Below, in pieces: positions 12,359 to 49,870 of a stretch of DNA of 64,000 nucleotides (within the stretch, counting starts at the first letter, position 1; every line of letters begins with the position of its first letter). Source of the DNA: Kudoa neothunni (Eukaryota > Animalia > Cnidaria); contig OZ199840.1 in the NCBI GenBank assembly GCA_964304625.1, positions 8,911,306 through 8,975,305 of the forward strand, given 5' to 3'. The translations under genes and the position numbers were made by a program. The notes under the pieces were generated by a model that was not told the DNA's origin, did not search any database, and worked only from the letters and a program-made list of their open reading frames with translations.

Positions 12359-13192
12359 TTATGCATGGGGAGGACAAACACTTGCTGCTACACAAACCAA
12401 TCCAGGGTTGTTTGTTACAGCTTCAAACTTGAAATTTTTAATAAGATGAATCAGAGAATGAAGCATCGTTAGACACTAAATCAAATAGGCTTATTTTAGC
12501 ATCAAGACTTTATTGCAGATTGTTATTACCACATGAGACACGAAGGGGTTATAGGGATTTTTACAGATACCGTTATATGTTGTTGGTTTTTGAAGCCATT
12601 CAATAATGTTTTTCTGATGTTTCACCAAATGAGTAATTGAAGCCTTACATAATTTGCATTTATGATAATTGGAAAGATCAACCACTACTTTGCATAAAGC
12701 GCAGTCACTTCTATCCCCAGTGTAAATGACTACATCATAGATAGATACTTGAGTTGATTGAAAAACATTACCTTTGTTTTCATGACAGAGTATATCCGTA
12801 TTGCATAGATTTTCAGATGTAATGTGTTGGTCAAGGGTATTTTTGTAAGATTGCAGAATAAAATCAACATTATCGTTCTATTTTGTTAAAAATTATTCCA
12901 ACAATACCGATATGCTTTAAGTACATTTGTCGTTAAATTGTGTTTGTAGCCAACAAGCCATTTGACCAAATTGTAAGCTCTTTCTTTTTTTCTTGCCAAG
13001 TAACTTTCCACAGGTTCCAATGGTATACTCTAATTAAAAATTTTTGACCTTCAACTCCATTCAACCACTGGTTACATCGAAATAACTCATATCCAGTTCA
13101 GATGTTGCAGCAACATAGAAAAATATAATGATTGCTTAAAAATGTAAATTATGACAAATAACTTATTAGTTAGATGGTATGATACCTATCAT
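12359..13192 (-). CDS. Secreted saposin-like protein, copy 1 (7 exons)
   Basis: Spliced: MIAIIIFFYVAATSELDMSYFD|SIPLEPVESYLARKKERAYNLVKWLV...|..LDQHITSENLCNTDILCHENK|VIYTGDRSDCALCK|ASITHLVKHQKNIIEWLQKPTTYNGICKNPYNPFVSH|CLTMLHSLIHLIKNFKFEAVTNNPGLVCVAASVCPPHA*. The C-terminal CxxC...C...C...P-x3-Cx5C pattern is the saposin B fold signature. Confidence 0.85.
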
Positions 13193-14399
13193 AACCGTCT
13201 TGACCAGATATAGATATGTTGAGTTTTCGTTGTTATGACAATAAAAAAATTATCTAATATATTATTTCGTTTTGGAATAGTTTGTATCAACAGATAAGCT
13301 AACAATGATGGTGTTTTTGTTTATTTTAATATTCATTAATATATTTATGATAGAATTTCTTTTAAAAAGTTTTACAATATTTTTGGATAGATGGACGAAT
13401 TTTTAACCGATAAAATTATGTTTAATGGATAAATCTTCAATAATTTAGGTAAATATTGTAATCATAAAATATATATCCTTTTCTTAAAAAGTAATATTAA
13501 ATATATCAATAAGTGCACTAATCAATAATTTATTTTTGCATATATAAATATCGTATTATCGGCATAATAAATATAATAAGGGAAATATTTTGTTTTCCAT
13601 TTACACCATTAATTTAAATTAATAGATATATTTGAATAAAAAGTGCTAAAATATATTAATAAAAGTATTGAAAAAACTATTTTTATTTGAAACATAGGAG
13701 ATAATTTTTTGAATGGAAATATTGTTTCTTTTACCTTAAACCTACGTATTATTGCAAAAGTATTAATACAAAAGCAATATTTATTCATAAAATAATTGTT
13801 ACGTGCATATAAATATCGTTTTATACTACAACAAGGAGCACCTCAAATCTGAAATATTTATTGTCTTGTTTAACTATGGTTTTCTAAAAGACAAACCCAC
13901 ACGATTACAACATAAATATATAAATTATATAAGTGTAATTAAGGTATTAAAAAACGATCACCCTCAAATTCACTATGGGGCCTGAATAACTCCAGTTTTT
14001 TTCAATTAACATTTCAGGAAAATAATTTGTAAATAATTCGTTTAATTAAAAAAAATCGTAACCACTTTCTTCAATTAATCCCCCCTAATACGATTCGGTG
14101 AGGATTATTCAATACTTCGCTATATTACGGGAGATTAAGTAACTTTTAAACCATTGTGTATAAGTCATAGAGCAATACAATAATTCTAAAATTTCCTAAA
14201 TTACAAATTAGATGATGCCAAATATTGTATAATTAAATTTCGTGTTGTGTAAAAACATTAAGGACTTTTTACTTTTGTAATTTCGAGTTTTGGAGACAAA
14301 CAACCATCGAGACAACGTTCCACTATTTATTTCTTGAGCTCATTAAATCGGATATTTAAGACTAGGAAATCTATTAATTATTATTTTAAGGCACTTCGA

Positions 14400-14780
14400 A
14401 CAAATTTTTAAAAATCACGAGTAGAAATAATCCGGGATTAATTTCAACCCAAAGTTCGTCAGAGAGTTAAATAATTCCTTAAATTTCCAACTAAGGATAT
14501 TGTTGAGGTGGAGAAGAGAAAATGACTACGGAAGAATTAAAGGAGAGAACAAACGAAAATATTGACAAACAGGTCTATGAATGGATGAATACATTAATCG
14601 GATGAGGTCGAAAAATATAACGTTAATCTCATCGGAAATAATTTCCAATGAGATTATTTTAGAAATTAACCTAATGCCGATATTGCTAATTTTCGTTGGT
14701 TTTAAAAGTATATTATATGAGATAACCCGCGGAGAATTAACTTTCACGATGATTCAAATATCATGAACATTGTCAATGTA
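14400..14780 (+). mobile_element. Degenerate Tigger/pogo transposase HTH remnant
   Basis: Fragments 'ENIDKQVYEWMN', 'MRSKNITL' and 'FRWF' parallel the CENP-B HTH region of the element at 9487-11328. Confidence 0.45.
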
Positions 14781-47100: not shown

Positions 47101-49028
47101 CTCATTTAATTTTCACCTTAAAGTACAGAATTTATTTAAGCGACAATAATTTTTATAGTTTATTATTATGTTTATATTCATTTTTTATGTCTAATATTTT
47201 GGAAGAATTTTAATAGCATTATTTATTACTTTACATAATAATGGTATGTATAAGCAGAATGAATAATAGCTCCAATCATCGAGTGTTAAGTCATGAGGAG
47301 TGAAAAGAAAATGTTCATCCCTTTTTCAATTATACATAGAAAATTTAATTAACCAAAACATTTTGGTTTTAATTTTTTTTAGAAGTAATTGGGGAAATCT
47401 GAAGCTATCAAATAAAATAAACTAAAATAATACAGATTATAGTTTTAAGACATTTTTCATTGGTATTATTATTTTCGCATTTAAATAAAAAGTATAATCC
47501 AGTCTTGACATTCATATGGATGGGGGTGCGAAGTGAACGCGGAAATTAGGATGGGGATACGGGTGTAAAATTTGTAGGGAAACTGTTCTATAGCAAAACC
47601 GTATTATTGATATTTTTTAGTATTAAACATGGTTTATACAAAAAAATTATTTATTATTTGGTTTACACATCTATTAAATATTTTATAAAATTGCATGATC
47701 TTTTATTAATTATACATATATTCGTACTAGCACCGGTAGATTATGTGTGAAAACGCATTCTTTCCATATCTGATTCATTTTTACAAACATAAACCGTGTT
47801 AAATAATATTTGTATAAATCTGTTCCTCAATAACTAACTCATTTCTTTTAATTACTCTATCAATTGAAATCAGCTTGAATTTTCCACTTCGACCGTCTCA
47901 CCAAGTCATAAACTGTGGTTGGCCGGTGAATCATTTATCCTGATTTTAATAATTTTAATAACTTAAAGGATTGTATTTAATTTCGTTGCAATATATACCA
48001 TAAAATGTATTGTGTTGGTGATTTTGGCGCCAAAGATACAGAGTGATATAATCAAAGATTTCGTGATATCCATCAAAAATTGGTACTTTTGATCGTAGAT
48101 TTTTCTCTGTTTCATAAAAACACTAAATCTTATTTGTTTAACCGGAAAAATTGGTATTATTTGTAGTCACGCGACCAAATAACTATAACTACCTAGTTTA
48201 ATTTAAAATAAATTACGAAACTTTTACACCGCTAATATAAAACACATTAGAAAAATAGCATTCAGTATAAAATATTCATACGTCGTATTGTAGAAATCGC
48301 GTACTTTCGTTTATTTATTTTATAATTATTTTTCCAACAAATGATTGAAATAAACTAATTCCGATATCGCAATAAATTACCGAATAACAACTGAGCTAAC
48401 TATAAATTAATTTTTATTATATTCACCGAAAGGTAACACATTTTTTTTGTAAATATATTCGTGCTAGTTGTTATTTTTTTGAATTTTCAAAAAATAATGA
48501 CATGGAATTTATTATTTTTTAGGATTAATCTCAATTATATAACTTGTATATAATATCCTGCTAAATTTTTTTATTTGATATAGATAAAATCAACAAAATT
48601 TTGTCGAAAGTATACCCGACCAATTTTCTGTGAACTTTTATAAGTAGATACGAACATCACCGACATTAACGGAGGGATTAATTCAATTTGATTATCGATT
48701 TTCCTCTGAATATGTAACGTATAATATTGTAATTTAATAGACACAAGTTATGAAAAATTAACTGAGTAAAAATGTGGTTATTTTGCGTTGAAAATTCCAT
48801 TTTATAAAAAAAGTGTGAAACATTACAAACCGTTATTATTATATCAACGAACATTTAATACTTCACTTGAAATTATATTTTTCAATAGTATAACTTTGTT
48901 GCTTAAAAGGGAAATTTCATATAAAAATGAAACTTAATATTGATGCGCAAAAATATACAAATGTGAAACCATAACGTAATCTATTTTGTAATGTTTTTGT
49001 GAGTAAAGTGAATTTCAATGGTAGCTGA

Positions 49029-49870
49029 TCATCCGCATATCCAACGAGCCTTGCAAATGTTGAGATTGCCTAGTAGTTTCTCAATCGATCCTCCAACAAA
49101 TTTCAGGAATTTACCAACAAAGAATGAGCACTAGAGAATCATTCATTCATTCATTCAAAATAGAAAATTATTTAAATTACGAAAGGAATTGGGAGTGAGC
49201 CACACGCTAGTTTGGAGAGAGCGTCTAGAGATGTAACAGTTTTTTTCTTTAGGAGATCAGTGATTGTCTAAAAATAGTTTGGTTTTTATTTTTGCATTAT
49301 AAATACAACGAATTATATACTGTGCAAATTTTGCAAGCAAATGGAATTCCGTATAAAATCACTATATCCAAGCTATATAAAAATTTCCAAACTATACATG
49401 ATGTACCTTTATTGTCATGACAGTAAGCGCCGTCACTGCAAATTTCATTGGCTAAAAGGCTTTCGTTCATTAGTCTTGAGAACTCAACCTTCATGTCACT
49501 AAGAATACTATCCTAATGGATGGTTTTAGATTTCATGCATGATTATAATTATGCATATTTACATATTCAGGGTATTCTTTGACAACTTCAGCTTGATGGT
49601 AATCGTATGACAATAAAATTTGATTCTTGATGTATTCGGAGAATTCTTCCGAAGACATTAAAGCATTGGTGTTTCCGTCCTAATGTATTTGGTAATGAGA
49701 ATATTGCTGTCAAAAATCGCACCAAATTAATTACTAAAAGTGTAAGAAGTTCGTTTGAAGTTGCCTTCACCAATTGTTGTACGATGAAAAACACTTTACA
49801 GTACATAATAACAACAATAACAACCCAGCCTCATCAAAAATATACCACATAAAAATATAACAGCCTTCAT
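49029..49870 (-). CDS. Secreted saposin-like protein, copy 8 (acidic N-domain + cationic SapB)
   Basis: MKAVIFLC|VFFIVQQLVKATSNELLTLL|DGNTNALMSSEEFSEYIKNQILLSYDYHQAEVVKEYPEY|DSILSDMKVEFSRLMNESLLANEICSDGAYCHDNK|VILYGIPFACKICT|TITDLLKKKTVTSLDALSKLACGSLPIPF|CSFFVGKFLKFVGGSIEKLLGNLNICKARWICG*. Confidence 0.88.

Follow-up and report, generated by a model that had tools for sequence, protein, structure and literature searches.

Eight divergent minus-strand genes for candidate secreted saposin-like proteins, with a putative degenerate module ahead of a complete one and GATA-rich upstream DNA

We analysed a 64-kb window (the whole stretch of 64,000 nucleotides (nt) of Kudoa neothunni contig OZ199840.1, forward-strand positions 8,911,306 to 8,975,305, numbered here from its first letter), in which eight minus-strand genes appear to encode secreted proteins that end in a saposin-like module of the SapB type. 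An earlier note, made from the letters of this DNA, had proposed eight such genes of seven exons each, and the models bore this out: all eight spans begin with an ATG and end with a stop codon on the minus strand, and the refined seven-exon models contain 48 GT-AG introns of 37–60 nt (median 48 nt). The genes were located as follows.

Gene 1: 12359..13192, minus strand, introns 13185-13135, 13075-13030, 12924-12878, 12771-12730, 12688-12644 and 12529-12476
Gene 2: 24324..25224, minus strand, introns 25199-25152, 25092-25055, 24949-24902, 24783-24743, 24701-24657 and 24542-24483
Gene 3: 28989..29903, minus strand, seven-exon layout as in its siblings, reading frame interrupted in this assembly at 29215, at the end of exon 6
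Gene 4: 31906..32808, minus strand, introns 32768-32729, 32663-32621, 32521-32474, 32361-32325, 32283-32236 and 32121-32080
Gene 5: 37420..38281, minus strand, introns 38265-38217, 38142-38093, 37990-37944, 37834-37783, 37741-37696 and 37581-37537
Gene 6: 41541..42435, minus strand, introns 42410-42369, 42297-42240, 42122-42078, 41971-41921, 41879-41823 and 41708-41655
Gene 7: 43214..44254, minus strand, introns 44238-44193, 44145-44104, 43995-43956, 43849-43804, 43762-43709 and 43606-43550
Gene 8: 49029..49870, minus strand, introns 49845-49794, 49734-49680, 49562-49513, 49406-49362, 49320-49268 and 49180-49131

The gene models were evaluated by a parse test in which start, stop and the number of introns (six) were fixed and the score was composed of splice-site letters and intron adenine-plus-thymine content only, with no homology input. 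Intron phases 1,0,0,1,0,0, described before as common to the family, were recovered in the best-scoring parse of seven of the eight genes. Exon 5 measures 41 nt in every gene, exon 4 measures 106 nt and exon 6 measures 114 nt in five of the eight each, and the encoded proteins are 180–255 amino acids (aa) long; guanine-plus-cytosine (GC) content is 0.34–0.40 (about 0.37) in exons and 0.27 in introns across the eight refined models. An open splice path was also permitted by 22 of 240 shuffled genes, and an open hand-splice on its own is weak evidence for gene models; chance or artefact as the source of the eight models was ruled out by the common exon lengths and cysteines. We take the eight genes to be real paralogues.

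Gene 3 departed from the earlier statement that all copies stay in frame, as none of its 552 six-intron parses carried the family phases and its frame is broken at 29215. At this position the window differs by a one-letter indel from contigs of the short-read runs X1, X2 and X3, all from one sample; the break is therefore probably an assembly error and the gene probably intact in the animal. The X1 contigs, compared with the genes other than 1 and 8, continue through introns, indicating that X1 is a DNA run. Three metatranscriptome runs, of which about a fifth to a quarter was read in each case, contributed 2, 9 and 12 partial reads; the eight genes received none of these, and the runs are uninformative on expression.

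No ninth copy was found within the window, to which the copy number refers: the best match of a hidden Markov model (HMM) outside the cluster had an expectation value (E) of 0.54, and tblastn matches there were at E 0.04 or weaker, except for the histidine (His)-rich tail of gene 7 against a His microsatellite. The cluster is loose, with genes occupying 19% of 37.5 kb and gaps of 0.8–11.1 kb. Among the 48 intron acceptors, 35 read TAG and 13 AAG, and none CAG, whereas the nematode acceptor consensus is TTTCAG, and a nematode host was rejected for this reason; half of the introns (24 of 48, P 0.012) have lengths divisible by three, four of these having no in-frame stop. This bias in acceptors and lengths may belong to the splicing of the lineage or to parse choice.

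The C-terminal module (C-module) is formed by exons 5–7, which encode the pattern CxxC-C-C-Cx5C in all eight genes, with exon 7 beginning with a cysteine (Cys) in each; this pattern and a hydrophobic N-terminus were thus found in every copy, as the earlier note had described. Eight cysteines are invariant across the eight proteins. Cysteine spacing is 2-27-11-26-5 in genes 1 and 2, 2-27-10-26-5 in gene 3, 2-27-11-30-5 in gene 4 and 2-27-11-28-5 in genes 5 and 6, and is shorter in gene 7 (2-23-11-23-5) and gene 8 (2-22-7-24-5). Saposin A has 2-27-11-25-5 (counted from the alignment of the PDB search), matched within 1–5 residues in six copies, and the saposin motif N-P-G-x-V-C before Cys5 is also found in genes 1–3. 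A profile search of PDB (177,635 sequences), using a profile that contained intron letters, returned saposin A chains as the top two of three matches (E 0.027 and 0.053); a second profile matched saposin D as its sole hit (E 0.44), and exon 7 alone matched saposin D third of four (E 0.078), with an unrelated phosphatase, in two entries, ranking above it. The long frame of gene 7 found no saposin in PDB. With cysteine spacing and these weak, repeated saposin matches, the saposin-like assignment is upheld, and the spacing makes it very probable that the C-module is a SapB member.

The saposin-like fold is by definition a bundle of four or five helices (PMC3184995). Disulfides 1-6, 2-5 and 3-4 and lipid or membrane binding also mark the family. 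Two AlphaFold models built from intron-containing read-throughs were of low confidence, with a predicted local distance difference test (pLDDT) score of 46 and 49. Saposin was absent from the top 50 of the fold search with the first model, whose input was intron-containing and whose pLDDT was poor; with the second, equally poor intron-containing model, Foldseek placed saposin A at rank 1 (E 2.7) and VIA-align at rank 4 (Z 3.8, root-mean-square deviation 4.7, 64 aligned residues), tied with unrelated helical chains. These fold searches rest on the same two low-confidence models, are not independent of each other and count neither way, and they share their input with the PDB saposin matches, which are likewise not independent of them.

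C-module net charge (not surface charge) is +5, +5, 0, +2, +3, +2, 0 and +7 in genes 1 to 8, the module of gene 8 being the most basic, and six of the eight copies have 3–5 His; lytic SAPLIPs (NK-lysin/granulysin, amoebapores, clonorin) are marked by a basic surface or an oligomeric pore that depends on pH. Between Cys2 and Cys3, where saposin A has N-A-T, none of the eight has an N-glycosylation sequon. Two observations concern the C-terminal ends: genes 2, 3 and 4 (24324-24370, 28989-29040 and 31906-31950, minus strand) share R-x(0-1)-P-L-S despite an identity of only about 20% between gene 4 and the others, and this could possibly be a sorting signal; gene 7 (43214-43440, minus strand) ends in some 75 His/Asp-rich residues, a tail not in other copies, for which metal binding or pH sensing is possible.

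At the other end of the proteins, the N-terminus is hydrophobic in all eight (best nine-residue Kyte-Doolittle mean 1.9–3.1, gene 2 being weakest at 1.9), and no transmembrane stretch was seen beyond residue 35 (best 17-residue mean ≤1.66); the proteins are likely secreted. Exon 2, at the position expected for a CxxC exon, encodes the hydrophobic N-terminal core, and CxxC is found there in none of the eight copies. Exon 4 ends in Cx5C in all eight genes, like exon 7, this first Cx5C being polar whereas that of the C-module carries the hydrophobic saposin pattern; in genes 2, 6 and 7 a proline precedes the exon 4 motif by four places. An initial Cys in exon 4 and a late Cys in exon 3 co-occur in genes 5, 6 and 7, with neither present in the other five, which fits the joint loss of a disulfide pair. 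The six-Cys set is thus incomplete in the N-terminal module (N-module): CxxC is kept in none, the middle pair in three and Cx5C in all of the eight copies. Gene 1 has Cx5C only (net charge −1), gene 5 keeps the middle pair, gene 6 keeps it in an acidic module (−7), and gene 7 is best preserved with five cysteines; the N-module of gene 8 is acidic (−10) and that of gene 2 is at +2, these two marking the ends of the charge range.

The phases 1,0,0 occur twice per gene, and in the exon profile tests 7 against 4, 6 against 3 and 3 against 6 the summed scores exceeded those of all 100 shuffles, while scores of mismatched exon controls were reached by 18 and 9 of 100 shuffles. Beyond what the earlier note had described, these features suggest that exons 2–4 are a worn copy of exons 5–7 and thus a degenerate SapB module, a derivative rather than a member of the family. 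A whole family with a worn saposin module ahead of a complete one would be new, and stages of cysteine loss would be visible across its paralogues.

The linker from the first Cx5C to the next CxxC is 13–17 residues long, and 13 in six of the eight. An asparagine lies 2–3 residues after the last Cys of exon 4 in seven of the eight copies, possibly as an asparaginyl-endopeptidase site or as a structural residue. The short linker, the invariance of the first Cx5C in all eight in spite of its missing partners, and a cysteine order compatible with cross-module pairing are also what would be expected if the N-terminal Cx5C paired with the CxxC that follows, in a circularly permuted, compact, swaposin-like unit that would serve in structure or binding. 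Swaposins occur in plant aspartic proteases and in jellyfish J3-crystallin. Both are named as carriers of Sap domains in the literature (PMC3184995). We regard this arrangement as highly improbable, since the C-module alone holds all six cysteines at canonical spacing, the hydrophobic saposin pattern lies at its own Cx5C and not at the polar first one, and cross-pairing would deprive the last Cx5C of the partners it normally has.

The DNA upstream of the genes is rich in GATA motifs. In the 8 × 200 nt before the ATGs, WGATAR occurs 26 times against a mean of 6.07, a count reached by none of 3000 random draws; the counts for genes 1 to 8 are 3, 1, 2, 6, 2, 7, 0 and 5. AGATAA ranks first of 2067 six-mers upstream (13 against 2.2 expected, Poisson P 6.5e-7). 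The downstream 8 × 200 nt contain five WGATAR, and the upstream regions of three neighbour genes 1, 0 and 1. Nowhere in the window are GATA motifs denser than in three clusters that precede genes 4, 6 and 8, the cluster at gene 6 being the densest. In genes 4, 5, 6 and 8 a GATA motif is followed by a TATA box ≤75 nt from the ATG, and this pattern, defined post hoc, is matched nine times in the window, five of them at the following upstream regions.

Upstream of gene 4: 32809..33008, minus strand, six WGATAR, GATA then TATA with matches at 32866 and 32861
Upstream of gene 5: 38282..38481, minus strand, two WGATAR, GATA then TATA with a match at 38334
Upstream of gene 6: 42436..42635, minus strand, seven WGATAR, GATA then TATA with a match at 42499
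Upstream of gene 8: 49871..50070, minus strand, five WGATAR, GATA then TATA with a match at 49943

The upstream regions are otherwise unalignable (top z 2.4 among 28 pairs). This enrichment, which goes beyond the earlier note, suggests co-regulation in one cell type; a GATA-plus-TATA signature that persists without upstream alignability would predict expression in a single cell type and offer a handle for finding co-regulated genes. It resembles the 5′ GATA motifs described for C. elegans spp-1, whose expression falls on elt-2 RNA interference and depends on ELT-2 (PMC2568960), and GATA factors are reported to be present in myxozoans (PMC8855578). A literature search for saposin GATA promoters in the flatworm gut found none.

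Most of the copies are highly divergent, as had been stated: protein identity is 42–51% among genes 1–3 and 14–24% in the other 25 of 28 pairs, with pairwise shuffle z from 1.7 to 85 and gene 7 the weakest and most divergent copy. The tree has no starred branch, and only genes 1–3 group (81/92). The ratio of nonsynonymous to synonymous substitutions (omega) was calculated for 6 of the 28 pairs by a simple counting method, three of them being saturated over all exons; identities and ratios were obtained with an earlier donor for intron 6 of gene 5 that was later revised. For pairs 1/2, 1/3 and 2/3 the proportion of synonymous differences (pS) was 0.74, 0.74 and 0.80 and that of nonsynonymous differences (pN) 0.34, 0.31 and 0.33, giving omega of about 0.12 for 1/2 and about 0.14 for 1/3, with 2/3 saturated. 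The alignments of pairs 5/6, 2/4 and 3/4, at 21–23%, are unreliable, with omega 0.77 (5/6) or saturation. Because synonymous sites are near or at saturation while pN is about 0.3 among genes 1–3, the results point to old copies whose closest members are under purifying selection, with room for past bursts of positive selection, and the description of the family as rapidly diversifying was not borne out.

A lineage-restricted family, as proposed before, is in keeping with homologue searches that came back blank, although a low-sensitivity profile search among them also missed known saposins. An intron-containing HMMER profile run against 1.84 billion representatives gave one match at E ≤0.001 and did not recover known saposins, which indicates low sensitivity as well as divergence; its sole match, P0007, was rejected as a spurious tandem-repeat translation. 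Exon 7 of gene 3 had no homologue among longer proteins or in Joint Genome Institute (JGI) metagenomes, and of two gene 3 frames searched in the ESM Atlas one reached a best score of 0.76 to unnamed clusters and the other had no usable match.

In the window, introns have a median of 48 nt, exon GC is about 0.37 and overall GC about 0.28. These values fit those of Kudoa myxozoans, for which introns of 49 and 61 nt, exon GC of 37% and genome GC of 30% and 26% are given (PMC12239612), a fit that is not diagnostic. In such a parasite the proteins could be host-directed cytolysins or stinging-capsule toxins diversified by an arms race. In octocoral nematocysts, saposins from a prosaposin-like precursor gave the best proteomic match (PMC11896702), saposins of schistosome vomitus reach dN/dS of up to 0.82 (PMC4350168), a multi-Kunitz gene lies inside the cluster and genes 5/6 give omega 0.77. 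That last value comes from an alignment at 22% identity, whereas the two correctable close pairs give about 0.12–0.14, and the cluster shows neither young duplicates nor a compositional island, all of which leave a toxin role quite unlikely.

Our preferred reading, to which we give roughly even odds (a probability of about 0.5), is that the genes are eight old paralogues for secreted two-module saposin-like proteins, co-activated through GATA motifs in digestive or defensive cells, whose complete C-module would disturb lipid membranes. What can be read in the sequence is the seven-exon layout, the six-Cys C-module, the doubled 1,0,0 phases, the partial cysteines of the N-module, the GATA enrichment and pN far below pS in genes 1–3. 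The ancestor would have carried two tandem three-exon SapB modules in one gene, of which the first would have lost its CxxC, with the exon at that place now encoding the hydrophobic signal core, and in five of the eight copies its middle Cys pair as well, the retained polar Cx5C probably closing on itself. A GATA factor would switch the eight genes on together in a digestive or defensive cell type. The worn N-module might then act as a pro-domain that, by analogy with proSP-B, aids folding or shields the C-module, a role most plausible for genes 6 and 8, which pair an acidic N-module with a basic C-module. Release could follow from cutting of the 13–17 residue linker or from a change of pH, after which the freed C-module would open on its target bilayers, whether those of food, microbes or host cells, and cause lipid extraction or leakage, and separate copies might cover separate lipids or targets. 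The degenerate-then-complete layout makes the pro-domain idea testable by comparing the full-length protein with the isolated module.

The lack of a saposin A-type sequon and the neutral-to-basic C-modules speak for lysis. By analogy with hookworm Na-SLP-1 and Ac-SLP-1, lysis does not follow from the saposin fold alone, since these proteins are described as binding membranes with no significant haemolytic or bactericidal activity (PMC3184995). The same precedent would suit non-lytic lipid carriers that work in lysosomes or the gut lumen, extracting lipids or presenting them to hydrolases as saposins A–D do, with no killing. Such carriers would agree with the nearest PDB sequences being lysosomal saposins A and D rather than NK-lysin or amoebapore, with purifying selection in genes 1–3 and with the two neutral C-modules. 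They are nevertheless unlikely in our view: none of the eight copies has the Cys2–Cys3 sequon that saposin A carries as N-A-T, the C-modules range in charge from 0 to +7 and none is acidic, unlike saposin A with its extended negative patches (PMC11896702), a SapA module is lacking, and eight copies with GATA-rich upstream DNA would be unlike a housekeeping pattern. We find very doubtful the boldest version of membrane activity, in which these would be myxozoan saposin effectors, eight GATA-co-regulated secreted cytolysins that each carry the CxxC-less second module as a cleavable safety catch, with its first exon recast as a signal peptide, and that lyse host cells or microbes.

Several results weigh against the preferred reading of co-activated, membrane-disturbing two-module proteins. 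For the C-module, every PDB saposin match has E >0.01; Pfam gave a single sub-threshold SapB_2 hint among 32 single-exon frames (exon 7 of gene 4, E 0.17, 12.6 bits against a cut-off of 21) and no SapB match in five intron-containing read-throughs; and of 32 exon tests only 7 gave a hydrophobic moment at P ≤0.05 against shuffles. For the N-module, the reverse profile test, exon 4 against exon 7, was not significant, its score being reached by 32 of 100 shuffles, an hhalign comparison of exon 7 with exon 4 yielded a probability of 0.8%, and an exon 4 profile found no saposin in PDB. The Cys-pair co-occurrence does not represent eight independent cases, as genes 1–3 are a clade, and charge complementarity between modules is clear in just two of the eight genes, two C-modules being neutral. 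The GATA excess comes mostly from genes 4, 6 and 8, which account for 18 of the 26 sites; WGATAR is missing from the 250 nt upstream of gene 7, and the motif was spotted by eye before being counted. Myxozoans, finally, have no gut, and if the host is one of them the digestive cell type would have to be reworded.

Compared with known systems, the cluster appears to have a familiar job in an unusual layout, saposin-like families and their expansions in parasites, flukes and nematodes being already known. Calicophoron daubneyi, a rumen fluke, is described as having 26 saposin-like protein (SAPLIP) genes, most of them single-domain and about 100 aa long, with one of 193 aa carrying two SapB domains (PMC11727788), near the 180–255 aa of the proteins here. 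Like the cluster, fluke SAPLIPs and the spp genes (caenopores) of C. elegans are lineage-specific expansions of divergent, mostly signal-peptide-bearing, SapB-only proteins; unlike them, every copy here has a CxxC-less module before a complete one, and the likeness is not one of demonstrated sequence kinship. Prosaposin and proSP-B consist of SapA module(s) and three or four complete SapB modules (PMC4933373), whereas the proteins here have one complete six-Cys module and, at 180–255 aa, no room for SapA. Against prosaposin in particular they have two SapB units, not four, no SapA, neutral to basic C-modules and no Cys2–Cys3 sequon. ProSP-B, with three SapB and one SapA, has a SapB-containing propeptide that has been suggested to act as an intramolecular chaperone (PMC4933373); the likeness lies in an N-terminal SapB-containing part ahead of a membrane-active SapB, the difference in the full cysteine set of proSP-B, and in the cluster a pro-domain role is only inferred.

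The nematocyst saposins Delta-GRTX-Esi32a-f of Eunicella singularis, six mostly acidic modules from one prosaposin-like precursor of 699 aa (PMC11896702), are likewise secreted animal saposin modules proposed as cytolysins and are relevant for a cnidarian host of the genes, but they derive from a single precursor rather than from eight separate two-module genes. Fast-evolving saposins are also described in schistosome vomitus (PMC4350168). No myxozoan saposin family was found in the literature searched, which included the main text of myxozoan genome papers, whose supplements may list such genes, and none was found there on tandem-array expansion of saposin-like genes in parasites. If the animal is a fish parasite, the proteins would be candidate antigens, as are fluke saposins (PMC3184995).

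The locus is a loose group of genes in DNA rich in repeats. The earlier note had placed the genes in an island rich in transposable elements; there is no GC shift, repeats lie inside and outside, and genes make up 19% of the span, which does not agree with a distinct island. The window has about 28% GC with no step across the cluster, and a bounded island was ruled out by this flat GC together with transposons outside the cluster as well. The identified neighbour genes are as follows.

1594-6728, plus strand: WD40 gene, which we take to be LST8-like
6960-9152, plus strand: syntaxin gene
18163-19439, plus strand: multi-Kunitz gene

The syntaxin matched animal syntaxin-1A in PDB at E 1e-26, chain 2xhe_B at 2e-12 and yeast Sso2 at 6e-5, and had one database relative (73%), which points to a divergent animal as host; a homologue search with an exon of the LST8-like gene and a search with the syntaxin in JGI metagenomes were blank. 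The WD40 and syntaxin genes are apparently split by long tandem-repeat introns (3935-4309 and 7914-8860), unlike the short introns of the cluster. The multi-Kunitz gene, between genes 1 and 2, has a hydrophobic N-terminus (ATG at 18163 by eye), four Pfam Kunitz matches, a Cys-rich frame at 18705-18962 with no Pfam match, and no GATA cluster. Remnants of DDE transposases at about 9.7–11.1, 20.8–21.7 and 51.2–52.7 kb lie both inside and outside the cluster. Two multicopy elements stand out in X1 depth against about 5–10: one at 25840-28308 (2.5 kb), with inverted arms of about 500 bp that are 93% alike, a depth of 60–97 and no transposase frame seen, and one at about 34.7–36.7 kb with a depth of up to 112. 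At 53–64 kb there are several unassigned exons, and a minus-strand frame at 59563-59997 has weak hints of FGF (E 0.05) and Ribosomal_L6e (E 0.034). A 1.1-kb repeat at 14956-16000 recurs in opposite orientation at 61517-62586, the two copies being 71% alike with no long frame and each having a GATA-like microsatellite cluster beside one end; this pair is probably an old repeat.

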